A stretch of DNA of 64,000 nt from Alphaproteobacteria bacterium. Its GTDB lineage: Bacteria; Pseudomonadota; Alphaproteobacteria; GCA-2731375. The DNA lies in the NCBI GenBank assembly GCA_965225945.1, contig CBDDBZ010000025.1:103994-167993 (forward strand). The letters run 5' to 3'. Below, piece by piece: positions 12,403 to 62,068 of the stretch; position 1 is the stretch's first letter, and the number at the start of each line of letters is the position of its first letter. Below the pieces are notes generated by a model. It made no database searches. It worked only from the letters and a program-made list of their open reading frames with translations, and was not told the DNA's origin. The translations under genes were made by a program, and so were the position numbers.

Positions 12403-13164
12403 CTATCCGATACCCGCGCGTCGGCGGAAGGCGGGGTCGGCGAGGGAGATCTCCTGGCCGCTCAGGTCGCGCGCCGCCGGGGTGCAAAGATAGACGATGG
12501 CCCGCGCGGGATCGTCGAGCGAACCCAGATTCTCGCGGGGAATCCGGCTTACCGGGTTGATCCCCGAGGCGCGGATTTGCACCTGCATGTCGGTGTCAAC
12601 CGTGCCGGGAGAGAGACCATGGACGCGAATTCCATCGCCGCCGGCCTCCAGCGCCAGCGAGCGCGTCACCATGGCCAAGCCGGCCTTGCCCGCGCAATAG
12701 GCGCTCCAGCCCTCGAGGGGGCGGTGGGCGGCGCCGGAGGACAGGTTGATGATGGTCCCCCGACCGGCCGCGCGCATGGCCGCCAGCACGGCATGAATGC
12801 AGTTGTAGGCACCGATCAGATTGATCTCGATATTGCGGACCCAGGCCGAGGGATCGCCGTCGCCGAGCCGGCCGATCGGCTCGACCACGCCGGCATTGTT
12901 GACCAGTGCCTCGATCGGCCCGAGCCGGTCGCGGGTGGCCCGGACCATGGCCACGACCTGAGCCCAATCGGCGACGTCCGTGGCCATGGCTTCGGCCCGG
13001 CCGCCGGCGTCGCGAATTCGCCGGGCGACGGCCTCGGCCTGGGCGCCGTTGCGGGCCGCGAGCATGACCGCCGCGCTCGCCGCGCCCAAGGCCCTCGCCG
13101 CGGCGGCGCCGATCCCTCGGCTCGCCCCGGTGACGACGACCACTTGCCCGCCCAACCCATCCAT
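12403..13164 (-). CDS. Short-chain dehydrogenase/reductase
   Basis: TGASRGIG, NNAG, SSGAA, YCAGK, PGTVDTDMQ; start set at ATG 13164. Confidence 0.9.
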   Translation of the reverse strand: MDGLGGQVVVVTGASRGIGAAAARALGAASAAVMLAARNGAQAEAVARRIRDAGGRAEAMATDVADWAQVVAMVRATRDRLGPIEALVNNAGVVEPIGRLGDGDPSAWVRNIEINLIGAYNCIHAVLAAMRAAGRGTIINLSSGAAHRPLEGWSAYCAGKAGLAMVTRSLALEAGGDGIRVHGLSPGTVDTDMQVQIRASGINPVSRIPRENLGSLDDPARAIVYLCTPAARDLSGQEISLADPAFRRRAGIG

Positions 13165-13274
13165 ATTCGTCGCTCCCTCGCATTCTCGTCCCTCGGGCGG
13201 CGGCGTATGGCGCCGCATTTTCAGGTCCTTGTCGGTTTCGATTGCCGCGCCGTCCCGCTCGGCGGAGGGCGGGC

Positions 13275-14093
13275 TCAATTCGCGTGGATCCACCAGAGCA
13301 GGCCGCCGCCCAGGATCAGGCGGTAGATCACGAAGATCGTGTAGCTGGAGTGGCGCACCCAGAACATCAGGAAGGCGATGGCGAGCAGCGCCGCGACGAA
13401 GGCCAGCGCACCGGCCACGAGCACGGATATACCGAACTGGAGATCGCCGCTCGCCGCCACCTCGACCGTGGCGTAGCCGCCGGCGGCGAGGATCGCCGGG
13501 ATCGACAGCAGCATCGAGAAGCGCGCCGCCGCCGCCCGCTCCATCCCCAGCAGGCGGCCGCCGATGATGCAGGCGCCGGCCCGGCTGGTGCCCGGAACCA
13601 GCGCGAAACACTGAATCAGGCCGATGAGCAGCGCGCCGCGCCAGGTCAGCTGGTCGAACGCGCCGGTGGTCCGCCCCGTTAGATCGACGGTATAGAGGAC
13701 GGCGGCGAAGACGATGGTGGCCCAGGCGATCACCTCGAGCGAGCGCAGCATCTCGTCGATACCGAAGCGGGTCAGAGCCACGCCGGCGACGATCAGCGGG
13801 ATCGTGCCCACCGCGAGCAGAACCAGGAGCGGCGTGTCCGGCGTCGCCTGGCCGCGGGCCAGCGCCAGGAGCGCGCGCAGCAGGCGGCGAACCTCGTCGC
13901 GGAAATAGATCCCCACCGCCCCGAGGGTGCCGACATGGACGGCGATGTCGAGCTCGATCCCCTGGTCCGGCCACTCGGCGATCACCGGCACCAGGATCAG
14001 ATGGGCCGACGAGCTTATCGGCAGAAATTCGGTGATGCCCTGGACCAGCGCCAGGACGACAATCTGCACCAGCCCGACCGGACCTTCCGCCAT
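13275..14093 (-). CDS. uppP: Undecaprenyl-diphosphate phosphatase
   Basis: QGITEFLPISSSAH, PGTSRAG, AARFSMLLSIP; polytopic. Confidence 0.95.
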   Translation of the reverse strand: MAEGPVGLVQIVVLALVQGITEFLPISSSAHLILVPVIAEWPDQGIELDIAVHVGTLGAVGIYFRDEVRRLLRALLALARGQATPDTPLLVLLAVGTIPLIVAGVALTRFGIDEMLRSLEVIAWATIVFAAVLYTVDLTGRTTGAFDQLTWRGALLIGLIQCFALVPGTSRAGACIIGGRLLGMERAAAARFSMLLSIPAILAAGGYATVEVAASGDLQFGISVLVAGALAFVAALLAIAFLMFWVRHSSYTIFVIYRLILGGGLLWWIHAN

Positions 14094-14192
14094 GGTGTCC
14101 CCTCGTTGGCGCCGTTACCGTCGCATTCGGCAGCGTCCGGTGTTCTTCCTAAGTCCTTTATACCACGGGGATTCTGGTCCGACTCGCGGAAT

Positions 14193-14978
14193 TTAATCTC
14201 GATTTGACTCGATAGCCGCTAGACATGCCGTGTCGACGACGAGTTCGCGGAGCAGGCGGCGGAGATCGCCGAAATTTTCGAAGGTCGCGTCGGGCGCCGC
14301 CTCGCCCGCGCCGATCGAGACCTCGGGGCGGCGCATCTGCAGCGCCGTGATGCCGAAGCCGCGGGCGCCCTGGATATCTTTCACCGGATCGTCGCCGATC
14401 ATCCAGACCTCGGCCGGCGAGACGCCGAGCTTGTCGATCACCAGCCGGAAGGGCGCGAAGGCCGGCTTGTCGGCACCCGCCTCCTCCGAGGTCACGACGA
14501 AGTCGAAGGCCCCCTCGAGGCCGAAGTAGATCAGCTTGCGGAACTGGATTTGGGCGGTGAGGTCGGTGAGGACCGCCGTCGCGATCCCGGCGCTCCGGAG
14601 GTCGCGGACAAAGTCGTCGACCTCCGCGAACAAGCGCGCATGCGCCAGAAAGGCCCGCCAGTAGGTCTGCTCCAGGTCCAGGCTGGTCAGCGGCCGGCTC
14701 TTCATGCCGAGTAATTCGACGGCGCGGTGGTAGTAGAGCAATCGGTTGTGGGAGCTCGCGGTATCGCCCAACTGCGACTTCACCGCCGCGCGCCCTCGTG
14801 CCACCGCCTCGCGGAACGCCCCTCGCTCGACGCCCAGCAATTGGACCGCCTTCTCCTCGACGATCTCGCTCGCCGCCTCATGCGCGGGTGCGTAGGCGTA
14901 AAGGGTGTCGTCGAAATCGAGGATCACCGCGGCCGGCGCCTTGGCCAGCGCATCCGGGGTCAATCGCTTCACCGCCAT
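14193..14978 (-). CDS. HAD family hydrolase (phosphatase)
   Basis: DFDDTLY motif I, SEEAGADKP, MIGDDPVKDI; overlaps the stop of the upstream gene. Confidence 0.9.
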   Translation of the reverse strand: MAVKRLTPDALAKAPAAVILDFDDTLYAYAPAHEAASEIVEEKAVQLLGVERGAFREAVARGRAAVKSQLGDTASSHNRLLYYHRAVELLGMKSRPLTSLDLEQTYWRAFLAHARLFAEVDDFVRDLRSAGIATAVLTDLTAQIQFRKLIYFGLEGAFDFVVTSEEAGADKPAFAPFRLVIDKLGVSPAEVWMIGDDPVKDIQGARGFGITALQMRRPEVSIGAGEAAPDATFENFGDLRRLLRELVVDTACLAAIESNRD

Positions 14979-17050
14979 GTTCGGTCCCTCAACGCTTGCT
15001 CGATCTCGACCAAGGTGACGAGCTGCATGATACCGCCCATTCGCCCGCTCCATGTCGGCGAGCGGTCCAACAGCTCGTCAAGCCGGGGTACCAGCATTTG
15101 CGCGGCGAGCGCGATATCCGCCGCCGCCACCTCGCCGTCGACCGTGAAGGCGACCGTGGCCTCGTGGTCGATCTCCTCGACATCGACCCTGAGGCCGCAG
15201 ACCCCGATCAGGACTCGCGACAACTGTTCGTAGTAGAGCCCTTCGCGCAGCCGGACGTGCAGCTTCACCCGGGTTTCGTCGATTCCCCGCTCGTCGCGGA
15301 GCATATCGGGGTGGACCGGCAGGAGGGTGAAGACGAGGTCGGCGTGGCGTGCCTGGGGCTGGATGTAACGCGCGCCGTCAGGTCGGCGGCGTTCGATCGA
15401 GGCGGTGACCGCCGCCGGATCATGCCCGCGCTCGCCGACGTCGCGGGCGATCTTCCAATGGCGACGCAGGTCTTCCTCGGTGGCGACGAAGATGGCGAGG
15501 TCGAGGCGGCTCCGGAGCTCCGGCGGATAGAGCGTGTGCAAGCCGGAGACGATGACCACGTCGTTCGGCGGGATCACCTCGGGCGCCGTGAACCGCCCGG
15601 TGGCGTGATCGTAGCGCCGGGCGACGACCCGGCGACCCTCGATCATGCCGAGCGCGTCCTCGGTGAACCGCCGGAGGTCGTTGGCGCGTGGGTCGAGATG
15701 GGTCAGCGCGCGCCACATCGGCTCCTGCCGTTCCCAGTTGTGATAGTCGTCGCCGGTGACATGGGTCACCGCCCGCTCGCCGAAGAGCCCGGCGATCGCC
15801 AACGCCAATGTGCTCTTGCCGGTGCCGGAATCGCCGGCAATGCCGATCGCCAGCGGGCGGCGGCCGAGCCGGTGGAAGTCGTTGCCGGTGATCCCGCGCC
15901 GGTACATGCCCACCGCCAACACGACCCCGAGCGCGGTGACCAGGGTGAGCCAGAGCGAGCGCGCGTGCGGCGTCACATGGGCGGCGAACTCCGCCCCCTG
16001 CCAGGTGTAGTCGAGGCCGAGGAACGGCACCCCGGCGCCCTGCGAATAGAGCAGGTGATAGGGGATCAGCAGCAGCGCGAAGACGCTGGTCAGGAAGACG
16101 GCGTTGCCGCCCACTCGGAGCTGGTGGAGGGCGAGGAAAGGCAGCACCCAGAGGTACCAGCCGACCGAGGCCGGCGTCATCAAGACGACGACGACGAAGA
16201 CGACGCCGAGGATCGCCAACAGCAGCTCGAAATTCTGCCGGCGAAACCGCCAGACGACGTAGAGCACCAGGAGATAGACCAAGGGCGTCAGATAGATGCC
16301 GAGGCCCGGCGCGAGGTCGATCGAGAGCTGATAGACCTTGCCGATCTCACGGCTGCCGAAGACCATCTGGGTGAAGCCGGGCGAGAGTAGCCAAGGCCCC
16401 TGGGCCGCCAGCAAGGTGGCGGCGGCGGCGGCGGCGAAGGGGATCGCCAGGTCGCGCGTCCGCTTGTTGACCCAGAGGTAGAGCAGCAGGAAGGGTGCCG
16501 CGAGCACCATCGACAGCTTGGCGACGATGGCGAGGCCGGTGGCGATGCCGGCGGCATGCGGCCTGGCGCTCTTCAGATAGAGCAGCGCGCCGAGCAGAAA
16601 GGCGACCGGCACCACGTCGGTCTGGCCGTGCCAATAGGTGATGTAGAAGGAGAAGGGCGAAAGCCAGTAGAAGATCAGGATCTCGCGCGGACGGTCGTCG
16701 ACGATTCGGGTCAGCAACAGCAGTGCCCAGACGTCGGCGAACAACAGGCTCGCGCGGAATCCGACGCCGGCCAGATAGTCGATATTCAGCAGTTGATCGG
16801 CCAGCATCCCGACGGCGACCGACGGCAGGTGCGCCAGCAGCATAACGGTGCCATAGGGAAAGGCGAGCGCATCGCCGCCCTGGGCGATGAAGTCGGTCCA
16901 GGGGTCCGCGCTCGGCGAGGTCACCAGGAATTGGACGAAGGGCAGGAACCATTCTCGCTGCACCTCCGGCACCACCAGGGCGACGAGCAGCAGCTTCGCC
17001 ACCAAGCCCGCCCGGAAGAGCGGCTGTCGCGAGAGCGCCTTCAGGTCCAT
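14969..17050 (-). CDS. Polytopic GT-C-like membrane protein fused to phosphoribulokinase/uridine kinase-like P-loop domain
   Basis: About 10 hydrophobic segments with FPYG, YWLSP..YITYWHGQTD, GWYLW motifs; then IGIAGDSGTGKST, DDYH, LDPRAN, YDHATGRFTAP, GLH. Confidence 0.8.
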   Translation of the reverse strand: MDLKALSRQPLFRAGLVAKLLLVALVVPEVQREWFLPFVQFLVTSPSADPWTDFIAQGGDALAFPYGTVMLLAHLPSVAVGMLADQLLNIDYLAGVGFRASLLFADVWALLLLTRIVDDRPREILIFYWLSPFSFYITYWHGQTDVVPVAFLLGALLYLKSARPHAAGIATGLAIVAKLSMVLAAPFLLLYLWVNKRTRDLAIPFAAAAAATLLAAQGPWLLSPGFTQMVFGSREIGKVYQLSIDLAPGLGIYLTPLVYLLVLYVVWRFRRQNFELLLAILGVVFVVVVLMTPASVGWYLWVLPFLALHQLRVGGNAVFLTSVFALLLIPYHLLYSQGAGVPFLGLDYTWQGAEFAAHVTPHARSLWLTLVTALGVVLAVGMYRRGITGNDFHRLGRRPLAIGIAGDSGTGKSTLALAIAGLFGERAVTHVTGDDYHNWERQEPMWRALTHLDPRANDLRRFTEDALGMIEGRRVVARRYDHATGRFTAPEVIPPNDVVIVSGLHTLYPPELRSRLDLAIFVATEEDLRRHWKIARDVGERGHDPAAVTASIERRRPDGARYIQPQARHADLVFTLLPVHPDMLRDERGIDETRVKLHVRLREGLYYEQLSRVLIGVCGLRVDVEEIDHEATVAFTVDGEVAAADIALAAQMLVPRLDELLDRSPTWSGRMGGIMQLVTLVEIEQALRDRTWR

Positions 17051-17081
17051 CACGGCAAGCCTGGCGCGCGCGAGCTTCGGA

Positions 17082-17666
17082 TCAGCGCCAAAGCTCGGGC
17101 GCCTTGGTGCAGACCGCCTCGGCCCGGATGCCGCGGTTCGCCAGCAGTCGCCGCATGTCGGCGATTTCGGAGGTCTCGCGCCCCTGCAATTCGGGCGAGA
17201 CCAGGCAGAGGCGGAAACCGGCGGCCTGCAATGATTCGGCCTCAGCACGGCACAGCGGGAACTTGGTGAAACAGTCGACCCAGGCCCACTCGATCATGCC
17301 GGCGAGCGCCAGCGCGGTATCGAGCGTCTCGTATTCCGACACGCGGACGGCGCAGCGCCTCTCGCCCGCCCGTGCGGTGCGGATCAAGAATGGGAAGGAC
17401 TGGTCGAGGAAGAAGAAATTTTCAATTCCCTCGGCCGCCACCGCCGCCAGCACGTGCGTCTCCAGCCCTTCTTCCTTGACGTTCAGGATCAAGGTGCCGT
17501 GCGCATAGGCTTGAAGCCAGTCCTCGAACCGCTCACCGACGACGAAGGGGTCGTGGTGGATCACCAAGTCGTCGCCCTGGCTGCGGATGTCGACTTCGAT
17601 GCCGAGCTCGCGCGGTGTCGCCTCCAGCTCGGCCCGGGTGTTGCGGCGATGGCGGATCAGGATCAT
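17082..17666 (-). CDS. Small glycerophosphodiester phosphodiesterase/PI-PLC-like protein
   Basis: HRRN, GIEVDIR, HHDPF, LNVKEEGLE, RVSEYE, WVDCF, VSPELQGR; ATGA overlap with GT2. Confidence 0.7.
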   Translation of the reverse strand: MILIRHRRNTRAELEATPRELGIEVDIRSQGDDLVIHHDPFVVGERFEDWLQAYAHGTLILNVKEEGLETHVLAAVAAEGIENFFFLDQSFPFLIRTARAGERRCAVRVSEYETLDTALALAGMIEWAWVDCFTKFPLCRAEAESLQAAGFRLCLVSPELQGRETSEIADMRRLLANRGIRAEAVCTKAPELWR

Positions 17667-18376
17667 GCGGCTTCCCTCAAGCGCCGGCGGAGTTCCAGGC
17701 TGTAGCTCATGGTGCGGTGGATGAAGCGCGCCTTGGCCTTCCAGTCGACGTTCCAGCGCGAGATGCCGTGCGCCCGCGGGCCGAAGCGGACGGGAAAGCG
17801 CCGCACCTCCAGGCCGGCGATCCGGGCCTGATAATAGGCGTAGAGATCGAGCGAGAAATCCCCCGGCGGCGCCCGCCAGCTCTCGAAGAAGGCGCGGGGG
17901 AACATGGTCGGTTGGGCGTTGATGTCCCACATCGCGCGCGCCAGCAGCATGGTCTCGAAGGCGGCCATGCCCACAGTGAAGGCGACGTCGGCCAGCGGCC
18001 GGCCGAAGCGGCGGCCCTTGACGAAAAGCTGCTCGGGCCGCACCGCCGCCTCGAACAGCGCCAGGCCCCTGAGCGCGTCCTCCGGATCGGTCTGCATATC
18101 GGCGTGGGTCCAGGCGAGGATGTCGCCCTTGGCCACGGCGAGCCCGGCGAGGACGCCGTTGCCGTAGCCCTGGTTGATCTCGACGCGGGTGGTTTCGAGG
18201 AAGCCGTGTTCCCGCGCCGCGGCCGCCAGAATCGCGTCGCTGCCGTCGGCGGAGCCGTTGTCCACCAGCACGACCTCGACGTCGTCATGGCCCATCACCT
18301 CGGCCAGGCGGCCGATCAGCAGCGGCAGGTTGGCCGCCTCGTTGTAGCAGGGGATGACCAGCGACAGGGCCGTCAC
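17663..18376 (-). CDS. Glycosyltransferase family 2 (polyprenol-phosphate glycosyltransferase/DPM1-like)
   Basis: SLVIPCYNE, VDNGSADGS, NQGYG, HADMQTDP, R.HG.S.W. Confidence 0.9.
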   Translation of the reverse strand: MTALSLVIPCYNEAANLPLLIGRLAEVMGHDDVEVVLVDNGSADGSDAILAAAAREHGFLETTRVEINQGYGNGVLAGLAVAKGDILAWTHADMQTDPEDALRGLALFEAAVRPEQLFVKGRRFGRPLADVAFTVGMAAFETMLLARAMWDINAQPTMFPRAFFESWRAPPGDFSLDLYAYYQARIAGLEVRRFPVRFGPRAHGISRWNVDWKAKARFIHRTMSYSLELRRRLREAA

Positions 18377-18619
18377 GGGCGACCTCCGGGCAAGCACCGC
18401 GAATCGCGGACCAAGGGTAGCATATCGACGCTGACGAGCCGCCACTCGGCACCCTTCGTCTCGAGGGTGTGGGATCGCCCGGGTCCAAGGGCAAAGAGGT
18501 CACCGTGAGATGATGGGCGCACGCCGCGCCTCGCGATTGCTGCTCGAGGACTCCCGGACGTCGGAGGCGATAGACTGGCCTCGGACCAACGCGCCCGAGT
18601 TGCGGGGAGATCGCCTTTC

Positions 18620-19852
18620 ATGTCGATGCTGGTAATCGAGAACTGTCGGCTGCTGGATCCCGCCCGGGGCGAGGCGGTCGAGCGGGCCCATGTGCTGGTG
18701 GAAGACGACCGCATCCGCGAAATCGCCACCAGGCGGATCCGCGCCGGCCGGATCCGGCGCCTGAACGCCGAGGGCCGCACGCTGATCCCGGGCTTGATCG
18801 ACGCTCATGTCCACCTCATCGCCACCAGCCTCGACCTCGGCCAGATCGATCGGGAAAGCGCAATGCTGACCGGCGCCCGCGCGCGGCTGATCATGGAGGC
18901 CATGCTGGACCGCGGCTTCACCACGGTGCGCGACGCGGGCGGCGCCGATTGGGGCCTCGCCAAGGCGGTCGAGGCCGGCCTGATCCGGGGCCCCCGCGTC
19001 TTCTTCGCCGGCCATGCCTTGAGCCAGACCGGCGGTCACGGCGATTTTCGCCCCCTCACCTGGTCGGGCGACGGTTGCCCGGCCTGCGCCGGCGAGACCT
19101 TCGCCGTCATCGCCGATGGGGTCGACGCGGTGCGCAAGGCGGCCAGGGAGGAGCTGCGCCGCGGCGCGCACCAGATCAAGATCATGGCCTCGGGTGGCGT
19201 CGCCTCGCCCAGCGATCCGATCTGGAACCTGCAGTATTCGGAGGAGGAGATCGCCGCCGCCGTCTGGGAGGCCAAGTCGTGGAAGACTTACGTCATGGCG
19301 CACGCCTATACGCCCGAGGCGATCGGGCGCGCCGTCCGCCTCGGCGTCCGCTCGATCGAGCACGGCAACCTGCTCGACGGCGACACCGCCCGGCTGATGG
19401 CCAGCCGGGGCGCCTTCCTGGTGCCGACGCTCGCCACCTACGAGGCGCTGGCGCGGGACGGTGAACGATTGGGCTTCCCCGCCGCCTCGATCGCCAAGAT
19501 CGAGGACGTGCGCGAAGTCGGCCTGCGCAGCCTGGAGATCGCCCGCGAGGCCGGCGTCGAGACCGGCTACGGCACCGACCTCCTGGGCGCATGCCACGAG
19601 CATCAGTCCGACGAGTTCACCATCCGCGCTCGGGTCTTGGCGCCGCTGGAGGTGCTGCGGAGCGCCACCTCGACCAATGCCCGGCTGCTGAACCGGGCCG
19701 GCGAGCTCGGCACCATCGCCGAGGGCGCAATCGCCGATCTGTTGCTGGTCGACGGCGATCCCTTGCGCGATTTGGCCCTGTTGCAGGGCCAAGGCCGGCA
19801 CCTGAGCCTGATCATGCAGGGCGGGCGACTCCACAAATCGACCTTGGACTAG
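18620..19852 (+). CDS. Amidohydrolase family protein (Xaa-Pro dipeptidase-like)
   Basis: PGLIDAHVH, GFTTVRDAGG, SQTGGHGD, KIMASGGVASP, AHAY, SIEHGN, GTDLLG. Confidence 0.9.
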   Translation: MSMLVIENCRLLDPARGEAVERAHVLVEDDRIREIATRRIRAGRIRRLNAEGRTLIPGLIDAHVHLIATSLDLGQIDRESAMLTGARARLIMEAMLDRGFTTVRDAGGADWGLAKAVEAGLIRGPRVFFAGHALSQTGGHGDFRPLTWSGDGCPACAGETFAVIADGVDAVRKAAREELRRGAHQIKIMASGGVASPSDPIWNLQYSEEEIAAAVWEAKSWKTYVMAHAYTPEAIGRAVRLGVRSIEHGNLLDGDTARLMASRGAFLVPTLATYEALARDGERLGFPAASIAKIEDVREVGLRSLEIAREAGVETGYGTDLLGACHEHQSDEFTIRARVLAPLEVLRSATSTNARLLNRAGELGTIAEGAIADLLLVDGDPLRDLALLQGQGRHLSLIMQGGRLHKSTLD

Positions 19853-51188: not shown

Positions 51189-52082
51189 ATGGCCCGAACC
51201 GCAACCAAGACACAGCTGGCCCCGACCGTGGTGAGAAAGGATGCGGCGCTCGGCGCCGAGGTGCGCGGCATCGATCTCTCCGGCCCGCTCGATGGCGAGA
51301 CCGTCGCCTGGATCAAGCAGACCTGGGCTGAACACTTGGTGCTGGTGTTCCCCGACCAGTCCCTGACGGAGGACCAGCAGGTCGCCTTCAGCCGAAAATT
51401 CGGCGAACTCGCGGTGCATGTCGAGCCGGACAAGATCTCCACCAGGGCGCCCGAGATCTTTCGCGTCTCGAACGTCGACGAAGACGGCAACAGGATCGAT
51501 CCGGAGAGCGAGTATTTCCGATTTTTCACTGTGCTTACCGGGCGCTGGCACACCGACGGCTCCTACAAGCCGATGCCGTCCATGGGCTCGATCCTGCACG
51601 GGCAGGTGGTGCCACCGGAGGGCGGCGAGACTTGGTTCTGCAACATGTTCCGCGCCTATGACGGGCTTCCAGACGCGATCAAGGCGAAGATCGAGGGCCG
51701 CCACATGGTGCATGCCCAGGACTTCACGCGGGTCACCTGTCCAGGGCTCACCCCGCTGACGCAGGCGCAGCGCGAGGAGGTGCCGCCGGTGACCCACCCG
51801 CTGGTCCGCACCCATGGCGACGGCCGGCGCTCGCTCTATGTCAACGCCGCGGTGGCCTATTACGTCGGCGGCATGGGACTCGAGGAGGGCAAGGCTTTCC
51901 ACAAACAGTTGATGGACCTCGCGACCCGACCCGAGTACGTCTACCGCCACCGCTGGAGCGCCGGCGACGTGGTGATGTGGGACAACCGGGCCACCATGCA
52001 CCGCGTCACCGATTACGACGGCAACAAATACCGCCGCGCCATGCAGCGCACCGAGATCCTCGGCACGGATATCGTGCACTGA
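51189..52082 (+). CDS. TauD/TfdA family Fe(II)/2-oxoglutarate dioxygenase
   Basis: LGAEVRGIDL, WHTDGSY (HxD), GGET.F, HPLVRTH, WDNRATMHR. Confidence 0.93.
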   Translation: MARTATKTQLAPTVVRKDAALGAEVRGIDLSGPLDGETVAWIKQTWAEHLVLVFPDQSLTEDQQVAFSRKFGELAVHVEPDKISTRAPEIFRVSNVDEDGNRIDPESEYFRFFTVLTGRWHTDGSYKPMPSMGSILHGQVVPPEGGETWFCNMFRAYDGLPDAIKAKIEGRHMVHAQDFTRVTCPGLTPLTQAQREEVPPVTHPLVRTHGDGRRSLYVNAAVAYYVGGMGLEEGKAFHKQLMDLATRPEYVYRHRWSAGDVVMWDNRATMHRVTDYDGNKYRRAMQRTEILGTDIVH

Positions 52083-52168
52083 CGCCAGGGCCGGGGGACG
52101 TTTGCGGACGGCCGGCGAGCCGGGGTGCAACGGACGGGAACGCGATCGGCGAGGCAAGGAGGGTGGTC

Positions 52169-53068
52169 ATGAACGAACTGCCGTCACTCGGCCGCTTTCC
52201 CTATTCCGGGCTTCGCTCACGGCCCGATTTCGATTGGCCCGAGGGCAAGCGGCTCGCGGTCCACGTCGCCGTCAACCTCGAGCATTTCATCTTCGGCGAG
52301 GGCGGCGTCGACCTCGACCGGCCGACGCCGCCGCCCAACCACCGCAGCTATCTCTGGCGCGATTACGGCAATCGGGTCGGCGTCTGGCGCCTGCTGGACC
52401 TGTTCGACGAATTGGACGTGCCGGTCGGCGTCATCACCAACGCCTCGATCTACGACCATTGCCCCGAAACCGTCGCCGCCTTCCGCGAACGCGGCGACGA
52501 GATCATCGGCCACGGCATGACCAACTCCAAGAAGCCGAACGAGATGACCGAGGCGGAGGAGGTCGAGATGGTGCGCGCCGCGACGGCGGCCTTCCGGCAC
52601 CACGAAGGGAGCGCGCCGACCGGCTGGCTGACGCCCTACCTCAACCCCTCGGAGGTGACAACGGACATCCTCAAGGAAGCCGGCTATCAATACGTGCTGG
52701 ACTGGGGGATCTGCGATGACCAGCCGTTCTGGGCGCGGACCCGCGCCGGACCAATTCTGGCGGTGCCCTACCCGCTGGAACTGAACGACCAGCCGGCAAT
52801 GGTCTTCCGCCGCAACACGGCGGCGGAGTTCGCCGACATGATGATCGACCACTTCACGGAGCACCTGAGGGCCTCGCCCAAATACCCCTCCGTCTGCTCG
52901 TTCTCGCTGCACCATTTCATCATGGGCCAGCCCTATCGGCTGCATCAACTGAGACGCGCCCTCGAACACATCGTCGCACGCCGGGACGAGATCTGGCTGA
53001 CCACCCCCGGCGCCATCGCCCGCCACTACATGTCGCTCCCCGGGGAGAAGCAGCTGACGCCGGCGTGA
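52169..53068 (+). CDS. Polysaccharide deacetylase family protein (PuuE/allantoinase-like)
   Basis: WPEGKRLAV, WRDYGNRVGVWR, IIGHG, DDQPFW, PY.LELND, LH.FIMGQP.R. Confidence 0.88.
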   Translation: MNELPSLGRFPYSGLRSRPDFDWPEGKRLAVHVAVNLEHFIFGEGGVDLDRPTPPPNHRSYLWRDYGNRVGVWRLLDLFDELDVPVGVITNASIYDHCPETVAAFRERGDEIIGHGMTNSKKPNEMTEAEEVEMVRAATAAFRHHEGSAPTGWLTPYLNPSEVTTDILKEAGYQYVLDWGICDDQPFWARTRAGPILAVPYPLELNDQPAMVFRRNTAAEFADMMIDHFTEHLRASPKYPSVCSFSLHHFIMGQPYRLHQLRRALEHIVARRDEIWLTTPGAIARHYMSLPGEKQLTPA

Positions 53069-53204
53069 GCGAGCTTCGTCCGCCGTCATGGATCGCCGTG
53101 AAAGCCGAAGGATGCCGGCTCCGGGCCACATCTTTGGAAACCTTGGCCAACCGGCGCACCGCGCTCGGGTCGAAATCTTCACGCGACCCGATCGCCGCTC
53201 CCAT
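53069..53204 (-). pseudogene. IS630-family transposase N-terminal remnant
   Basis: GGAGG SD then MGAAIGSREDFDPSAVRRLAKVSKDVARSR...AIHDGGR, resembling alphaproteobacterial IS630 N-termini; truncated at the deacetylase stop. Confidence 0.6.
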
Positions 53205-53536
53205 GGTGGGCCCTCCTCAAGTCCGGATGACCGGTAACGGGATCGACCGCCTCCGCGCTCTTCCCAATCGTCAATTTTGGCAAGTTCTAATGGAACGCCC
53301 GGTCTCGGGGGCATTCCTGACTTCGATTCGGCGAAACCCGACATTCGACTGCCAATGCCGTCTATTGGGGGTAGAATCACCATCGTCGCCGTCTCGTGTG
53401 CCGGCCACGGGCTAGATGGGCGCTTGGCCTACGCATATCGTCCTCCAGATTGCGATCGAGTGCCCGAAGGGCTACCCTGATGCTCGGAACCGATGCTCAT
53501 CTGGGAGATGTCGGCTCGTGGCCCGGACGGCCCGTG

Positions 53537-54892
53537 ATGGATGCGAAACAAGTAAAAACGATCGTCGACCGCTACATGTTCCCGACCGAGGGTACGTCCT
53601 ATATGGGCGGCCTGGAGAACCGGCCGGTCATTGCCGGCAGCTTCGGGCGCACCGTGGTCGACACGAACGGCAAGGAATATCTCGACTTCCAGTCGGGCCA
53701 AATGGGCGCGGCCCTCGGTCACCAGCATCCGCGTATCGTCAAGCGGATCGAGACGACCATGAAGTCGCTGCTGCACGCTTCCAACACAATGTTGAACGTG
53801 CCGCGCCTGCGCCTGCATGAGAAACTCGGTAAATTGCTACCGCGCCCATTGGAAAAGTCGCTCTTTCTGGTGTCGGGCAGTGATTCGATCGAAGCCGCGA
53901 TCGATTTAGCGCGCAAGGCGACCGGCGGTCTCGATGTGTTGGGGTTGCATGCCGGCCTGCATGGCTCGACTTCCTATGTCACGAGGTCGCTTTCGTTCAA
54001 TTGGGAACGGCGCAAACATGCGGCCGTTGCGCCCCACACCGCGTCGGTGCTGACGCCCTATTGCTATCGCTGCCCACTCGGCCTCAAGTTTCCGCGCTGC
54101 GAGGTGCAATGCCTGACTTCCAGTTTGGAGCTGGCCGATGCCAATTTCACGGCGCAGCCGGCAGGCTTCATCGCTGAACCGATCCTTTCCGCCGGCGGTG
54201 TCATCGTGCCGCCGGATGGGTATTTCACGAAAGTGAAGGAGGCCTGCGATGCGCGTGGCATGGCGTTGATCGTCGACGAAGCGCAAACCGGCCTCGGCAA
54301 GACGGGAAAGCTGTTCGGATTCCAGCACGAGAACGGTTTGAAGCCGGACATCATCGCCATATCGAAGCATTTCGGCGGCGGCCTGCCGATCAGCGCCGTC
54401 TGCACGACGGCCCGGATGGCCAAGGCGGCAATATCGAACGGTTATTTCGCAACCCGCAGCCACGCCACCGATCCACTTCTCTGCGCCGCCGGGGAGGAAA
54501 GCCTCGATATCGTCGTCGACGAGGATATGCCCGGACGCGCCCGGCGGATCGAACGACACATAAAGTCCGCCTTCCGCTCGATGGCGAAGGAGTTCGAATG
54601 GATCGGCGACATCCGTGGGCGCGGCGTCCTGCTCGGGATCGAGCTGGTGCGGGACCGCCACACCAAAGCGCCCGCCAATGCCGAAACGCAAGCAATCTTC
54701 CAGTATTGCCTCGACAACGGCCTGATCTTTCAGGTGCGGGGCGTGCGCGAATTGAAAAATGTGATCCGGCTGGTACCGCCGATGACGACGACGAAGACGG
54801 AACTGGATCGGGCCCTGTCGATCCTGCATGACGCCTTCACGAAGGTTGCCAAGCGCGGCGCCAAACGGCGGCCGAAGGTCCGTGCCCGCTAG
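53537..54892 (+). CDS. Class-III PLP aminotransferase (2,2-dialkylglycine decarboxylase-like)
   Basis: DFQSGQMGAALGHQHP, EPILSAGG, DEAQTGLGKTG, ISKHFGGG, GDIRGRG. Confidence 0.88.
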   Translation: MDAKQVKTIVDRYMFPTEGTSYMGGLENRPVIAGSFGRTVVDTNGKEYLDFQSGQMGAALGHQHPRIVKRIETTMKSLLHASNTMLNVPRLRLHEKLGKLLPRPLEKSLFLVSGSDSIEAAIDLARKATGGLDVLGLHAGLHGSTSYVTRSLSFNWERRKHAAVAPHTASVLTPYCYRCPLGLKFPRCEVQCLTSSLELADANFTAQPAGFIAEPILSAGGVIVPPDGYFTKVKEACDARGMALIVDEAQTGLGKTGKLFGFQHENGLKPDIIAISKHFGGGLPISAVCTTARMAKAAISNGYFATRSHATDPLLCAAGEESLDIVVDEDMPGRARRIERHIKSAFRSMAKEFEWIGDIRGRGVLLGIELVRDRHTKAPANAETQAIFQYCLDNGLIFQVRGVRELKNVIRLVPPMTTTKTELDRALSILHDAFTKVAKRGAKRRPKVRAR

Positions 54893-55066
54893 ACGATGCA
54901 AGGCGCGTCTACGTCCGCTTCATGGACGACATTCTGGTGCTCAGCCGGACGGGCTGGAAGCTCAGGAAAGCGGTCAAAGCGGTGAACCAAGTGCCCGGCT
55001 CGCTAAACTTGGAAAAGCATCCCGACAAAACTTTCATCGGGCAAACGATCGTGGGAGCCTCGATAG

Positions 55067-55912
55067 ATGACCACCTCGCGAACCGCGACCTTCCTGGATG
55101 ACCCCATCGCCGAGTACGTCGATCTGGAGCGCTATCCCATCGCCGATCTGAAAAGCCCGGCGGCCCGAGCATTAATTGCGCGTATGCACGAGGAGATGGC
55201 CAATCTCGGTGCCTGCTGCCTCAGGAATTTCATCTGGCTTGAAGCCCTGGAGAAACTGCGGGGCGAAGCTGAAAGCCTGGCGCATCTGGCATATGGCGGA
55301 CCGAGCGAGGCGACGCCCTATTTCTTCAACTACCGCATCGGTGAGGGGAAGGGCTATCGCGAGGATCATCCGACACGGCGCACTTCACCCCGGCGCCTGG
55401 GTCAGGTGGCAGGCGATTTAATTCCTGAGGATGCCCAGGTGCGCCGGATCCACCGCAGCCCGAGCCTGATCGCCTTCCTGGCCAAGGCGCTGGGGGAACA
55501 AGCACTCCATCCCCTGGCCGACCGGAAGCAGTCGCTCAACATCTCGGTCATGGAGGAAGGCGGTTGTCAGCAGTGGCACTTCGACCGCGGCAAGTCCGTC
55601 ATCACCCTCCTGGTCCAGGCTCCGGAAGGCGGCGGTCACTTCGAGTACGTTCCCGATGTACGCAACGAAGACTCGGAAAATTTCGAGGCAGTGGGCCGGA
55701 TCCTCGATGGCTATCGCGAAAACGTACGGTCGGTCGAGATCACCGCCGGGACGCTAATGCTCTTTCGTGGGCACTACTCCCTCCACCGGGTGACCCCGGT
55801 CGAGGGCAAGCGCCATCGCCTCCAGCTCATCCTTGCGTACGCCGACCGACCGGACCAGCACGGCTCGGCTGAATCGAGTCGCCTCCACTATGGCACGCGG
55901 GCGGCGGGCTAG
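55067..55912 (+). CDS. BesD/HalD-related Fe(II)/2OG oxygenase (HxD, hydroxylase type)
   Basis: VDLERYPI, WHFD, TLLVQAPE.GG.FEY.P, GTL.LFRG.YSLHRVT. Confidence 0.75.
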   Translation: MTTSRTATFLDDPIAEYVDLERYPIADLKSPAARALIARMHEEMANLGACCLRNFIWLEALEKLRGEAESLAHLAYGGPSEATPYFFNYRIGEGKGYREDHPTRRTSPRRLGQVAGDLIPEDAQVRRIHRSPSLIAFLAKALGEQALHPLADRKQSLNISVMEEGGCQQWHFDRGKSVITLLVQAPEGGGHFEYVPDVRNEDSENFEAVGRILDGYRENVRSVEITAGTLMLFRGHYSLHRVTPVEGKRHRLQLILAYADRPDQHGSAESSRLHYGTRAAG

Positions 55913-56216
55913 ACACACCACAAACTATCCCGATGCGGTGACCTGACAGGTCCACTGAAGTGGACGCGGCGCGGTTGGGCATTCCTGATTGCCTACGCTT
56001 TGATCGCGATATCGTGGGGGATCGTCAACAACCTTCTGAAAGGACCGATCCCCGAGGTCATCATGATGCTCGGGTCGCCAGTTTGGTTTTGCCTGTATAT
56101 TACCGTGACAGAGGGAGTAGGCGAGGTCCGCGCCAGCCCAGATCGTGGCCAGTCGCAGAAGCGATGAAAGGCAGGCCGTGATCGGCCGTGACTTGAGGCA
56201 GGAAGGAATGTGAGCC

Positions 56217-57272
56217 ATGACGACACGATCACCGACCTCACCCGGTCTCATGGAGCGTCTGGCCGACGGGCCGGTCATCTGTGCCGAGGGGTACCTATTT
56301 GAGCTCGAACGGCGCGGCTATTTGCAGGCCGGGGCGTTTGTACCCGAGGTGGTTTCGGACCATCCCGACGTTGTCCGCCAGTTACACCGAGACTTTGTGC
56401 ATGCGGGGTCGGACGTGGTCGAGGCCCTGACCTATTACGCCCATCGGGAGAAGATGCGGCTGATTGGGCGCGAGGACGAACTGGAGCCAATGAACCGACA
56501 GGCATTGCGCATCGCCAAAGACGTCGCGGCCGAGACCGGGGCACTGGTCGCCGGCAATATCTGCAACACCAATATCTATGATCCAGACGACGCGGCGGGC
56601 CAGGCCAAGATCCGCGGTCTATATGCGGAGCAGGTGGAGTGGATTGTCGATGAAGGCGTCGATTTCGTGATTGCCGAAACGTTTCCTTGGCAAGGCGAGG
56701 CCGAACTGGCGCTGGACGCGATCAAGCAATCCGGCCTGCCCGCTGTGGTGACCTACGCGATCCACCGCGACGGCCTCACGCGGGAAGGCATTACGCCGGT
56801 ACAGGCGTGCAAGGCGCTGGAAGATCAGGGCGCGGCGGTGGTCGGCCTGAACTGCACTCGAGGCCCGAATACTATGCTGCCGATCCTGCAGGAGATCGCG
56901 GCTGTTTGCACAGTGCCGATCGCCGCTTTGCCGGTGCCTTTCCGCACCAGCGAATCGGAGCCCACATTCCAGTCGCTGACGGATTCCTGCCACGGGCATC
57001 CGGATGGTGATCGGCCGTTTCCGGTGCATCTGGATCCGATGAGCTGCACTCGCATGGACATCGCCCGCTTCACGGCGGAGGCGAAGGCGCTGGGCGTGAA
57101 ATATTTCGGCGTCTGTTGTGGCGCCGGGCCGCACCACATCCGTGCGATGGCGGAAGCGTTGGGCCGCCGTCCGCCGGCCAGTCGCTACTCGGCCGACATG
57201 TCCAAGCACTATGCCCTTGGTGATTTTGACCGTCAGCGCGGGCAGGACCGCGACTTCCGCGATCGGCTCTAA
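56217..57272 (+). CDS. Homocysteine S-methyltransferase family protein (BHMT-like)
   Basis: ICAEGYLFELERRGYLQAG.FVPE, AGSDV, GLNC.RGP, GVCCG (Zn cysteines). Confidence 0.9.
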   Translation: MTTRSPTSPGLMERLADGPVICAEGYLFELERRGYLQAGAFVPEVVSDHPDVVRQLHRDFVHAGSDVVEALTYYAHREKMRLIGREDELEPMNRQALRIAKDVAAETGALVAGNICNTNIYDPDDAAGQAKIRGLYAEQVEWIVDEGVDFVIAETFPWQGEAELALDAIKQSGLPAVVTYAIHRDGLTREGITPVQACKALEDQGAAVVGLNCTRGPNTMLPILQEIAAVCTVPIAALPVPFRTSESEPTFQSLTDSCHGHPDGDRPFPVHLDPMSCTRMDIARFTAEAKALGVKYFGVCCGAGPHHIRAMAEALGRRPPASRYSADMSKHYALGDFDRQRGQDRDFRDRL

Positions 57273-57568
57273 TCACCATCGATCGGGCGACGACCGCATT
57301 TGCCTATCGTGTGCGCTGGACGGCCCGTAATCGGTCGATATCGGTCCAGATGTCAACGGCGGTGCAAAAAGGGGCCAGTTCGGCGGAATTAGTCGGCCGT
57401 TAAATTCCCGAATTTCGGCGGCATCGTTGGTGTATTCGTCGTGAGGCACGGTTCGAGTTTGCAAGAAATCGCCTGAGGCAAGGTGGATTTCTTGCAATTT
57501 CGTTTGATTTTATGTTCTATTTTTCGCTGATTCATGTTATAGTCAAGCTCGTGATTATGAGGGCTCCC

Positions 57569-58900
57569 ATGCGACCGAAGCAGTCTCCCAAGGCCGATCA
57601 CGACGACCTCTTCCGTTCGCGCCTCGACCACATCATCAACATGCGCCACCCGCTCGTCCTCTTGGCCGAGAGGATCGATTGGGCCTGGATCGAGGAACAC
57701 CTGACGGACCGCTTCGCCGACAACGGCCGACCCGCCGAGCCGGTCCGCTTCATGATCGGCATGTTCGTGCTGAAGCACACCTACACGCTCTCCGACGAGC
57801 AGCTCTGGGAGCGTTGGGAGCACGATCCCTACTTCCAGTACTTCACCGGCGAGGAATTCTTCCAGCACGGGCTCCCCCACGAACGCTCGGGATTGAGCCA
57901 TTGGAGGAAGCGCCTGGGTGATCGCCTGGATATCCTGCTGCAAGAGAGCCTGCGCGTTGCCCATGACACCGGCGCCCTGAAGAAGAGCGATCTCGCCCGG
58001 GTCACGGTCGACACCACGGTGCAGCCGAAGAACATCACCTTCCCGACCGACGCCAAACTGCTGAAGAGGGCGATCGACAAGCTCGGCGAGCTGGCCAAGC
58101 GCCATGGCGTGGAGCTCCGCCAGAGCTATGTTCGGGTGGCGCGGCGGGCGGCGATGATGGTGGGCCGATACGCCCACGCCAAACAGTTCAAGCGGATGAA
58201 CCGGGAGCTGAAGTTCTTGCGGACCCGGCTCGGCCGGCTCATCCGTGATATCGAGCGCAAGATCGAGGGCGATCGGGCGCTGGAGGAAGTCTTCGCGACG
58301 GCGCTTCTCAGGGCCCGCCAGATCCGTGGCCAGAAGCAACGCCAGCGCGGCTGGAAGCTCTATTCATGGCATGCCCCCGAGGTCGAGTGCATCGGCAAAG
58401 GCAAAGCCGCGAAGCCCTACGAGTTCGGCGTCAAGGTCTCGCTCACCACCACCAACAAGCGTTGCAAAGGCGGACAGTTCATCCTCCACGCCAAGGCGCT
58501 CCCCGGCATTCCCTACGACCGCCACACCTTGAAGGAGGTGCTGGAGGAGACCGAGACCCTGACGGGGCGCGCGATCGAGCGGGTCTATGTCGACAAGGGC
58601 TACCGGGGCCACGATGCGCCGAAGCCGCTGCGGGTCTTCAAGTCGGGCCAGAAGCGCGGCGTCCACGGCCAGATCAAAAAGGAGCTCCGGCGACGAAGCG
58701 CCATCGAGGCCGTCATCGGCCATTGCAAGACCGACGGCCATCTCGACCGGAACTACCTGAAGGGACGGCTCGGCGACCGGATCAACGCCGTGATGAGCGC
58801 CGCCGGCTACAACTTCCGCCTCCTCCTCAGGTGGCTGAAGCTTTTTTTGCGTAAAATCATCGCCGCCGTATTGGCCGACTTGATCACAATGCCCGCATAG
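57569..58900 (+). CDS. IS5 family transposase
   Basis: DLFRSRLD.II...HPL, PY.QYFTG, VDTTVQPK, YSWHAPEVECIGKGK, VDKGY, RRSAIE.VIGH.K. Confidence 0.95.
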   Translation: MRPKQSPKADHDDLFRSRLDHIINMRHPLVLLAERIDWAWIEEHLTDRFADNGRPAEPVRFMIGMFVLKHTYTLSDEQLWERWEHDPYFQYFTGEEFFQHGLPHERSGLSHWRKRLGDRLDILLQESLRVAHDTGALKKSDLARVTVDTTVQPKNITFPTDAKLLKRAIDKLGELAKRHGVELRQSYVRVARRAAMMVGRYAHAKQFKRMNRELKFLRTRLGRLIRDIERKIEGDRALEEVFATALLRARQIRGQKQRQRGWKLYSWHAPEVECIGKGKAAKPYEFGVKVSLTTTNKRCKGGQFILHAKALPGIPYDRHTLKEVLEETETLTGRAIERVYVDKGYRGHDAPKPLRVFKSGQKRGVHGQIKKELRRRSAIEAVIGHCKTDGHLDRNYLKGRLGDRINAVMSAAGYNFRLLLRWLKLFLRKIIAAVLADLITMPA

Positions 58901-58999
58901 CGCCCCTGGCTACGACTTCCGCCTCCTCCTCCGGTGGCTGAAGCTTCTCTCGCGCAAAACCATCGCCGCCATATCGGCCGACTCGATCTCAATGCCGGC
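58805..58999 (+). repeat. Imperfect ~92-bp direct duplication of the transposase 3' end (58805-58896 vs 58908-58999)
   Basis: GGCTACAACTTCCGCCTCCTCCTCAGGTGGCTGAAGCTT... repeated with about 12 substitutions. Confidence 0.85.
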
Positions 59000-59111
59000 G
59001 GTCAGAACCGCTTCTTAACAGCCGACTAATTATAGAGGGCCACGATCGGTTGAGGGGCTTGTCCACGTAGTCCACGGGAGGACTCGTTTTGAAGGTCCTA
59101 CTGGTAACCCG

Positions 59112-60425: not shown

Positions 60426-60540
60426 GGTCTCCCAACCCAAATATCCCGGATGCGTTTGCAATCAGCAATCTAAAATTTAAACCGGGATACCCCAGACGAC
60501 TGCCAATCGCCGACAACAGTAGCACAATGGGCATCCGGCT

Positions 60541-60639
60541 CTGAATCCGGCTCAGCATGGCGCTCAGCGAGACTGGCCGGAGCTCCAAGCGGCCCTCGAC
60601 TACGCGCGCGAGGGCGATGCCCTCGTGGGACGGCGGCTT
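60541..60639 (+). pseudogene. Serine resolvase/invertase remnant
   Basis: Translates LNPAQHGAQRDWPELQAALDYAREGDALVGRRL, matching the resolvase segment SG....RPEL...L...R.GD.LVV..LDR; not in the ORF track. Confidence 0.6.
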
Positions 60640-61944: not shown

Positions 61945-62068
61945 TCGCGGAGCATCGCAAGATCGGCGGGACGCGCAATCGCCCGGCCACCCGCCGCGCC
62001 AGCCGCTTATCGGACCCGGAAAAAGCTGGACCGGAGGCGCGGACGGCTCCTCGAGATCGGACGTCGCG

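Follow-up and report, generated by a model that had tools for sequence, protein, structure and literature searches.

Gtr-type systems modify O-antigens by means of a family 2 glycosyltransferase (GT2), a GtrA-family protein and one or more transferases of the GT-C fold, with one variable, type-specific membrane component; they are accessory, mobile and tied to O-antigen loci, have relatives in ArnC/ArnT and CsbB-GtcA-YfhO, and draw on housekeeping UDP-glucose. Furanoses are delivered differently in the mycobacterial decaprenyl-phospho-arabinose and the phosphoribosyl pyrophosphate (PRPP)-dependent ribofuranose routes, which start from PRPP, use a UbiA-type or PRPP-dependent transferase and a 5-phosphate phosphatase, and end in a lipid- or polymer-linked furanose. 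The cassette described here lies in a stretch of 64,000 nucleotides (nt), hereafter the window, at positions 103,994-167,993 of contig CBDDBZ010000025.1 of an Alphaproteobacteria bacterium (GCA-2731375; assembly GCA_965225945.1), the genome of which is 96.6% complete. It forms one half of an accessory module, widespread and mobile, that has seven conserved genes plus a variable one and that we interpret, with a probability of roughly 0.55, as a Gtr/Arn-type periplasmic glycosylation system that would build its own donor from ribulose 5-phosphate (Ru5P); a pent-2-ulofuranose (xylulose or ribulose) is the likeliest residue to be transferred. The genes of the cassette and their neighbour are as follows, in coordinates of the window.

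17663-18376, minus strand: GT2, 237 amino acids (aa), GTG start with GGAGG 7 nt upstream.
17082-17666, minus strand: 194-aa protein predicted to have the TIM-barrel fold of the glycerophosphodiester phosphodiesterase (GDPD) / phosphatidylinositol-specific phospholipase C (PI-PLC) superfamily, here called GDPD-like.
14969-17050, minus strand: GT-C::PRK fusion, 693 aa.
15863-17050, minus strand: GT-C (GT87-like) membrane domain of the fusion, N-terminal, residues 1-396.
14969-15862, minus strand: phosphoribulokinase (PRK) domain of the fusion, C-terminal, residues 397-693, presumed cytoplasmic.
14193-14978, minus strand: phosphatase of the HAD-IA type (HAD), 261 aa, resembling ribulose-1,5-bisphosphate (RuBP) 5-phosphatase.
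13275-14093, minus strand, co-oriented with the cassette: uppP (BacA, 236 bits in Pfam), 99 bp beyond the HAD gene.

The first-pass annotation, made from the letters of the window, had described four tightly packed minus-strand genes followed about 100 bp later by uppP, and every coordinate, overlap and gap was verified on the sequence: the GT2 and GDPD-like genes overlap in the sequence ATGA at 17663-17666, 31 bp separate the GDPD-like gene from the fusion, and the fusion and HAD genes overlap by 10 bp. The G+C content of third codon positions (GC3) is 0.86-0.92 in all five genes, uppP included, which marks them as real coding frames, and the arrangement is not due to chance, because dozens of unrelated genomes show the identical gene order.

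The kinase domain resembles phosphoribulokinases of the photosynthetic/archaeal type (cyanobacterial, plant and Methanospirillum hungatei). It matches the PRK family of Pfam (PF00485) with 131.6 bits over residues 402-579 (cut-off 22), and aligns with the cyanobacterial PRK 6gve at 154.7 bits, ungapped over about 200 residues, compared with 79.8 bits for uridine kinase. In the M. hungatei enzyme, Ru5P is bound by His55, Arg59, Tyr98, His100 and Lys151, and ATP by Arg154 (Kono et al. 2017, PMC5241800). All of these residues are kept in the fusion, as H437, R441, Y480, H482, K533 and R536, together with the P-loop; with the exception of K533 they are invariant in 20 homologues of 41-82% identity. 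The suggestion that the kinase might act only on nucleosides therefore finds little favour in its predicted active site. It differs from known PRKs in standing behind a GT-C domain of 12 helices, in its C-terminal 80 residues, which fall outside the match to the PRK model, and in its score for the PRK subfamily NF005655 (202.9 bits against a cut-off of 236). The fusion is also the sole PRK-family match in the genome, and no match to the RuBisCO large subunit was found in the 96.6% recovered, so that any RuBP made by the fusion would lack a Calvin-cycle sink.

The phosphatase (PF00702, 81.1 bits) points to the same intermediate. Its best NCBIfam family is NF053830, the haloarchaeal RuBP 5-phosphatase, with 183.2 bits over positions 3-232 of 234, the next family scoring 93; the equivalog cut-off of NF053830 is 330. 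All 37 HAD proteins examined from cassettes of other genomes match the same family (best E 1.5e-56), residues D21 and D23 of the HAD D-x-D motif are invariant in 37 sequences, and the cassette HAD is the only strong match to NF053830 in the genome, the next being at 46 bits. Comparison with solved structures returned only generic HAD-IA proteins, at 50 bits or less. The reference enzyme dephosphorylates RuBP alone among 12 sugar phosphates and releases a cyclised ribulose-1-phosphate (Sato et al. 2022, PMC9700705). The earlier proposal that a kinase and a phosphatase act in turn on a pentulose phosphate thus gains specific, homology-based support from the phosphatase.

The membrane domain of the fusion is assigned to the GT-C fold on the evidence of a predicted structure. 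Residues 93-293 match GT87 (PF09594) with 36.6 bits (cut-off 25), and the AlphaFold model of residues 1-396 has a mean predicted confidence (pLDDT) of 95.2. When this model was compared with 48,161 chains by VIA-align, the 20 best matches were all GT-C enzymes or the GT-C-like PIGU (Z 7.5-26.3), the next, unrelated match reaching 5.4; the first-pass assignment of this domain to GT-C is borne out by this gap. GPI mannosyltransferase I in complex with dolichyl-phosphate-mannose (Dol-P-Man) gave 26.3, ALG3 25.1, ALG6 24.4, ArnT 19.1 and PimE (9dm5) 19.0 over 310 residues, with AftA, AftB, AftD and Emb also among the matches. The domain is accordingly described as GT87/PimE-like, a designation that does not imply mannose as the donor. 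Five charged residues are nearly invariant among 37 sequences: D106 (34 Asp, 3 Glu), D145 (36 Asp, 1 Glu), K178 (36), E235 (35) and R271 (36).

The GT2 (PF00535, 73.8 bits in Pfam; top NCBIfam family ArnC) has nine solved relatives at E ≤ 0.001, comprising three ArnC, one Dol-P-Man synthase, three of the GtrB homologue sll0501 and two other GT2 structures, and it probably belongs to the soluble polyprenyl-phosphate-transferase type (ArnC, Dol-P-Man synthase or GtrB-like) that makes polyprenyl-monophosphate sugars. A GtrA gene lies outside the window (C38:428735-429094 in the host genome; PF04138, 63.9 bits). Elsewhere GtrA adjoins GT2 in 33 of 55 loci with full context by tblastn, a count affected by GtrA being short and weakly detected, and in 45 loci by clustering of open reading frames (ORFs). 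The pair resembles a split Dol-P-Man-synthase-type enzyme, since Pfam treats GtrA as the transmembrane domain of that synthase. In 10 loci (L018, L007, L072, L086 and others), a class I S-adenosylmethionine (SAM)-dependent methyltransferase gene stands some 800 bp upstream of GT2, between the nucleotidyltransferase gene described below and GT2, where it replaces or accompanies GtrA. Its presence may point to a methylated form of the sugar.

The 194-aa protein gave no Pfam or NCBIfam match at E ≤ 0.01, and so has no sequence-family membership in PF03009, and no sequence relative in the Protein Data Bank (best E 0.26). Its AlphaFold model, built with 34 homologues as input, is of high confidence (pLDDT 96.2), and the top Foldseek matches are GDPDs (3ks5: E 6e-8, TM 0.69). 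In a wide VIA-align search of 48,161 chains, ranks 1-23 were occupied by barrels of the GDPD, phospholipase D (PLD) or PI-PLC type (Z 12.6-16.7), generic TIM barrels scoring at most 12.4; the best match was 2o55 (Z 16.7, root-mean-square deviation 2.5 Å over 185 residues). The protein is predicted to be a GDPD-type TIM barrel, identified by fold only. Invariant in 34 sequences are H6, R7, N9, E24, D26, R28, H38, N62 and K64, which include the H-R ... E-x-D ... H motif that starts with H6-R7 at residue 6 and is shared, like the fold, with the GDPD/PI-PLC/PLD superfamily. We take H6, R7, E24, D26 and H38 to be the catalytic His, Arg, Glu, Asp and His of GDPDs, as judged from the motifs of that family; the site of the third metal-binding Glu is presumably occupied here by an invariant Asn (N62-x-K64). 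Unlike members of the superfamily, the protein lacks a PF03009 match, is 40-60 residues shorter than the matched GDPD chains, and is predicted to be cytoplasmic, having no signal peptide, in a context of sugar activation. It is the best conserved of the cassette proteins (41-71% identity), and its homologues are annotated by NCBI as 'PI-PLC/GDPD family protein'. Two of seven longer database homologues join the GDPD-like domain to the GT-C::PRK fusion, which is consistent with a functional tie between both. Such joined proteins are rare; P0122 and P0125, which attach the GDPD-like domain to a protein of the GT87 or GT87-PRK type, may be genuine fusions or else read-through in gene calling.

The surroundings of the fusion were surveyed in 86 loci, six from one search and the best 80 of at least 229 relatives. 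The cassette genes, proposed from a single locus to act together, do co-occur in other genomes: GT2, GDPD-like and HAD genes are found together with the fusion in 58 of the 69 loci whose flanks reach 1.5 kb or more on the upstream side of it and 0.9 kb or more on the downstream side, and these 58 span Proteobacteria, Acidobacteriota, Cyanobacteria, Actinomycetota, Planctomycetota and others. ORF clustering added three further families: a protein of class II aldolase fold, a tandem nucleotidyltransferase (NTase) and GtrA. Full context, meaning flanks of 6 kb or more upstream of the fusion and 2 kb or more downstream, is available for 55 loci. Of these, 54 encode the HAD, 50 the GDPD-like protein, 50 the NTase, 49 the aldolase-like protein, 48 GT2, 33 GtrA and none UppP; the aldolase-like, NTase, GT2, GDPD-like and HAD genes are all present in 40. 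At one locus (L003) the GDPD-like gene alone accompanies the fusion.

The aldolase-like protein (about 343 aa, PF00596) has as its nearest NCBIfam families the rhamnulose-1-phosphate and fuculose-1-phosphate aldolase domains and MtnB, falls only among 'class II aldolase' clusters in the ESM Atlas, carries an extra C-terminal domain and is not of the haloarchaeal FucA type. The NTase (about 557 aa) keeps the signature G-x-G-x-R...K-P-L in both halves across 54 sequences, and its nearest families are sugar-1-phosphate nucleotidyltransferases; the N-terminus also gives a weak match, 24 bits and below cut-off, to IspD-type cytidylyltransferases. A second polytopic membrane protein of at least 380 aa occurs in 64 of the 86 loci and belongs to many different sequence clusters, some of which match GT87 or the NCBIfam 'AZOBR_p60025 family cell surface glycopolymer formation protein', while one was placed by the ESM Atlas, as a lead only, among 'DUF2029' and 'RgtA/B/C/D-like' clusters.

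The first-pass annotation had correctly noted that neither a flippase nor a nucleotidyltransferase is encoded in the window, and had named nucleotidyltransferase, GtrA and aldolase genes as possible partners. All three are co-conserved elsewhere and are encoded in the host on contig C38, where the plus strand carries, in order, a 913-aa membrane protein and the aldolase-like, tandem NTase (53% identical to that of Hylemonella) and GtrA genes. The module is thus split between two loci in the host genome. The 913-aa protein (L088:4262-7003; about 10 helices, a large C-terminal part, GC3 0.86) has no Pfam match and no homologue in the 86 loci, and may be the acceptor-specific transferase of the host. 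No description of the module was found in the literature searched, in agreement with the earlier remark that no characterised pathway has this gene set.

A route from Ru5P to the cell surface can be proposed from these components. The cytoplasmic PRK domain would convert Ru5P to RuBP, as its conserved substrate-binding residues suggest, and the translationally coupled HAD would remove the 5-phosphate to leave ribulose-1-phosphate (Ru1P), for which closure to a furanose is possible; this step is assigned from family-level homology, and the remaining ones from fold and context. L-Xylulose is the C4 epimer of D-ribulose, and the class II aldolase fold supports 4-epimerisation through a metal-enediolate, as in L-ribulose-5-phosphate 4-epimerase; the aldolase-fold enzyme would most likely catalyse 4-epimerisation of D-ribulose-1-phosphate to L-xylulose-1-phosphate. 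The GDPD-like enzyme and the two-domain NTase would then produce a nucleotide-activated sugar, which the soluble GT2 with GtrA would load onto polyprenyl phosphate. After flipping, the GT-C domain of the fusion, the variable GT-C-like protein or both would transfer the sugar to a surface polysaccharide, the acceptors typically being O-antigens dependent on ABC transporters, such as rhamnans.

The known part of this scheme is the Gtr/Arn plan, the lipid-carrier logic already put forward in the first-pass annotation, of which the GT2, GtrA and GT-C components are all recognisable by sequence or fold. The novel part is a putative donor branch of five enzymes with a Calvin-cycle kinase and a phosphatase of the haloarchaeal pathway. 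Gtr systems rely on a housekeeping donor without dedicated sugar-synthesis genes, whereas in the module five conserved functions are added (PRK, HAD, aldolase-fold, GDPD-fold and tandem NTase); it also differs in having its GT-C domain fused to a kinase, usually two GT-C-like proteins, and a GT2 without transmembrane helices of its own. With the mycobacterial arabinose and PRPP-dependent ribofuranose routes it would share an origin in pentose phosphates, dedicated removal of a 5-phosphate and the use of a polyprenyl-phosphate-pentofuranose by GT-C enzymes, but it has no UbiA-type or PRPP-dependent transferase: entry would be through PRK and RuBP, and the lipid would be loaded by NTase and GT2. 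The haloarchaeal non-carboxylating pentose bisphosphate pathway has the same HAD family, a class II aldolase-fold partner and RuBP as the presumed shared intermediate, but is catabolic and obtains RuBP from nucleosides via ribose-1,5-bisphosphate (R15P) isomerase (PMC9700705), whereas the module would obtain it from the PRK domain in a glycosylation setting; the HAD of the module falls short of the cut-off of that family (183 against 330), and its aldolase-like protein is of another subfamily, with the extra domain.

The identity of the sugar is suggested by Yersinia. Among 28 Yersinia species genomes, only Y. proxima IP37424 encodes the fusion; a search with the Erwinia fusion revealed all eight module genes, on an island between amino-acid-catabolism genes and a hydrolase gene. 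This strain is of serotype O:10-34, as are 9 of 10 Y. proxima strains (PMC7660898), and the O:10 antigen is a D-rhamnan with side chains of L-xylulofuranose, linked beta 2->2 to D-Rha (PMC11380512). The O:10 cluster of strain WL-21 comprises manC, manB, wzm, wzt, methyltransferase, GT, gmd, rmd, GT and GT genes, then galU-galF; that study lists nothing for xylulose in the cluster and merely guesses at a transferase for it (PMC11380512). The O-antigen cluster of Y. proxima contains manB, wzm, wzt (with Wzt_C), a methyltransferase gene, a GT4 gene, gmd, an rmd-like gene, two further GT4 genes, two galU/galF-type genes and gnd, in the same order as the O:10 D-rhamnan cluster. A review of Escherichia coli O-antigens likewise states that genes for activated xylulofuranose or ribofuranose precursors were not found (PMC7685785). 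The correspondence between Yersinia O:10 and the module is a strong lead rather than proof, and the module may be the route to xylulose side chains on bacterial O-antigens.

Associations with polysaccharide loci are found in other hosts. In Erwinia mallotivora an RgpF-like gene, wzm, wzt and gnd precede the module and his genes follow it, which is the classical enterobacterial O-antigen site. On a plasmid of Azospirillum brasilense the module adjoins genes for ABC transporters, gmd, a GDP-fucose-synthase-like gene, GT1/GT4 genes and methyltransferase genes. One Pseudomonas locus comes after cmk-rpsA, which we take to be an O-antigen site in that genus. Glycan genes stand beside the module in 7 of 14 further loci, among which the following were recorded.

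L025: GT10, GT25 and gmd beside the module.
L028: wzm and wzt with a Wzt_C domain beside the module.
L032, L043, L077: GT4 or GT2 beside the module.
L064: GT4, gmd and a CMP-sugar synthetase-like gene beside the module.
L072: DegT beside the module.
L039, L044, L055: housekeeping flanks.
L041: transposases.

Several observations weigh against a Gtr-like system with its own pentulose donor. Both the kinase and the phosphatase score below the cut-offs of the specific families that they resemble most, as given above. The GDPD-like gene is missing at three loci (L001, L040, L054), GT2 is not adjacent to the fusion at four (L038, L047, L076, L081), and within the window no polysaccharide genes stand beside the cassette. 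The Yersinia link comes from one positive genome, the published O:10 structure being that of other strains, and a periplasmic side-chain system does not explain the xylulose that E. coli O95 and Devosia carry in the main chain (for O95, PMC7685785). In chemical terms, the C1 phosphate of a ketose is not anomeric, so that a true glycosyl donor needs an extra, unprecedented step; the part assigned to the GDPD-like protein is conjectural; and two GT-C-like proteins per module are more than the Gtr scheme needs.

In a bolder version of the scheme, a phosphate would 'walk' along the sugar. PRK would place one on C1 of D-Ru5P, the HAD would take off that on C5 and so allow the furanose ring to close, and the aldolase-fold enzyme would epimerise C4. 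One domain of the NTase would form NDP-1-xylulose from the resulting L-xylulose-1-phosphate; the GDPD-fold enzyme would promote attack by the anomeric O2 to give a 1,2-cyclic phosphate and then xylulofuranose-2-phosphate; the other NTase domain would convert this to a true donor, NDP-2-xylulofuranose; and GT2 with GtrA would load it onto undecaprenyl phosphate for transfer by the GT-C proteins to rhamnan-type O-antigens such as that of Yersinia O:10. That this route to polyprenyl-phospho-xylulofuranose is the missing pathway of ketofuranose glycosylation is a speculative idea, and we consider it improbable in this full form.

Among the alternatives, the same Gtr-like design might serve an aldopentofuranose (D-arabinofuranose or D-ribofuranose), Ru1P being isomerised to a pentofuranose-1-phosphate by a reaction of the MtnA or R15P-isomerase type run in reverse, and then passed to the NTase and GT2. 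An aldose-1-phosphate is the normal substrate of the sugar-1-phosphate nucleotidyltransferases to which the NTase is nearest, a phosphate shift to C2 would be unnecessary, periplasmic GT-C enzymes using polyprenyl-phosphate-arabinofuranose are known (AftA, AftB, AftD and Emb, all found among the fold matches), and D-arabinofuranan is present in the alphaproteobacterium Devosia. The module, however, contains no MtnA/eIF2B-type isomerase, we know of no class II aldolase-fold or GDPD-fold enzyme that isomerises a ketose-1-phosphate to an aldose-1-phosphate, and the Yersinia O:10 correlation favours xylulose; an aldopentofuranose is therefore an unlikely product, though the best placed of the alternatives.

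A phosphate-linked substituent like that of teichoic acids is more doubtful still. The NTase would make an NDP-1-pentulose comparable to CDP-ribitol or CDP-glycerol, and the GDPD-like protein would handle the phosphodiester. GDPD enzymes do act on phosphodiesters at a primary carbon next to a hydroxyl, and the weak IspD-type match of the NTase N-terminus (24 bits, below cut-off) would suit a cytidylyltransferase of this kind. Ru5P is also the known precursor of CDP-ribitol, through the enzyme called 'Rib' in the O-antigen review (PMC7685785). The module, however, has no reductase and no co-conserved CDP-alcohol phosphotransferase or LicD/TagF-type enzyme, and the trio of GT2 (ArnC or Dol-P-Man synthase type), GtrA and GT-C is the hallmark of glycosyl transfer from polyprenyl-monophosphate sugars.

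Very little speaks for a kinase that phosphorylates a nucleoside, for nucleotide supply, or polyprenol, as a link to uppP, beside a HAD that is a generic phosphatase: many database homologues bear the name 'uridine kinase', and uppP follows 99 bp downstream in the same orientation with no terminator-like site between, but the scores of the domain for PRK are about twice those for uridine kinase, the ligands Arg59, Tyr98 and His100 are invariant together with His55, the HAD is RuBP-phosphatase-like in 37 of 37 cassettes, and UppP is encoded near the fusion in none of the 86 loci. Scarcely credible is a catabolic shunt in which PRK, HAD and the aldolase-like protein turn Ru5P through RuBP and Ru1P into dihydroxyacetone phosphate and glycolaldehyde beside unrelated glycosylation genes, for although the same three activities end the haloarchaeal pathway (PMC9700705), the kinase is covalently fused to GT-C in 120 of 120 homologues among the matches listed, the genes are co-conserved with NTase, GtrA and GT2 and lie inside O-antigen loci, the aldolase-like protein is not of the FucA type, and in bacteria with a pentose phosphate pathway of their own such a shunt would be a needless expense of ATP.

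The inclusion of uppP in the system, put forward in the first-pass annotation, is rejected. Its adjacency to the cassette is incidental, given its absence from all 86 loci, and it looks like a housekeeping gene, being the sole match to BacA-type undecaprenyl-diphosphatases in the whole genome by tblastn. A scan of positions 12800-19000 for promoters and terminators returned no promoter-like site and a single terminator-like site, inside uppP, and is uninformative on the limits of the operon. A short-chain dehydrogenase/reductase (SDR) gene (12403-13191) comes after uppP.

At E ≤ 0.001 the fusion has relatives in 497 cluster representatives among 8,000 candidates scored; its homologues are 631-722 aa long in all 120 among the matches listed; and at least 229 of 572 pattern matches in contigs from one genome per species encode relatives. 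Within the class, 6 of 401 sampled genomes, the host among them, encode the fusion in full length; the three further genomes from the family of the host lack it. Carriers of the module also include Erwinia, Pseudomonas, Legionella and a plasmid of E. coli. Pseudomonas piscis MC042 has two copies of the fusion on two scaffolds (L099 and L101), each 71% identical to the Erwinia protein. A full-length fusion is encoded on three of 72,556 plasmids, one each from A. brasilense, E. coli and Hirschia baltica; a phage collection contained no full-length fusion, and its three partial kinase matches are unrelated. The overall GC content of the cassette is 0.66-0.70, slightly lower than the 0.70-0.73 of the flanks. 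In 2-kb windows, the GC content across 14001-18000 is 0.664-0.674, 3-5 points below the neighbouring windows, which fits horizontal acquisition.

On the E. coli plasmid NZ_CP145712.1 (L089, 4986-17325) copies of IS26 enclose the genes for NTase, GtrA, GT2, the PI-PLC/GDPD-family protein, the fusion (labelled 'uridine kinase'), HAD, aldolase II and a hypothetical protein of 586 aa, and this bracketing makes the module a candidate composite-transposon-like, serotype-modifying element. One of the IS26 copies is frameshifted, and a truncated gene for an autotransporter with AIDA repeats adjoins the module. When 4 kb from Erwinia were compared by blastn with 5,426 complete E. coli genomes, the NTase-GtrA-GT2 stretch was found in two, both records of about 33 kb; the other matches are gnd.

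Elsewhere in the window, the stretch 52000-62000 has a GC content of 0.61-0.64, compared with about 0.68-0.72 in the rest, and may be an acquired island. It contains genes for a class-III aminotransferase (53396-54892), a HalD-like protein (55067-55912), a homocysteine S-methyltransferase-family protein (56217-57272), a DDE transposase (57512-58900) and a GcvT-like protein (59112-60461).

If these assignments are right, phosphoribulokinase, an enzyme of the Calvin cycle, appears to serve envelope glycosylation as well. This further role would apply to at least 229 genomes at the species level, many of them from lineages that do not fix CO2. The module may supply a concrete gene set for the activation of xylulofuranose and its incorporation into bacterial polysaccharides, and its chemistry, if true, would be new, with a ketopentose donor on a lipid carrier and, in the cytoplasm, a GDPD-fold enzyme engaged in sugar activation. 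Its mobility, seen in the IS26 copies around it on an E. coli plasmid, means that the module may be able to convert serotypes, and it may bring to light acid-labile decorations that standard O-antigen chemistry overlooks. Since ketofuranosides do not survive the mild-acid treatment commonly used to release O-antigens, ketofuranose decorations, if the module does make them, may be far commoner than published structures suggest.

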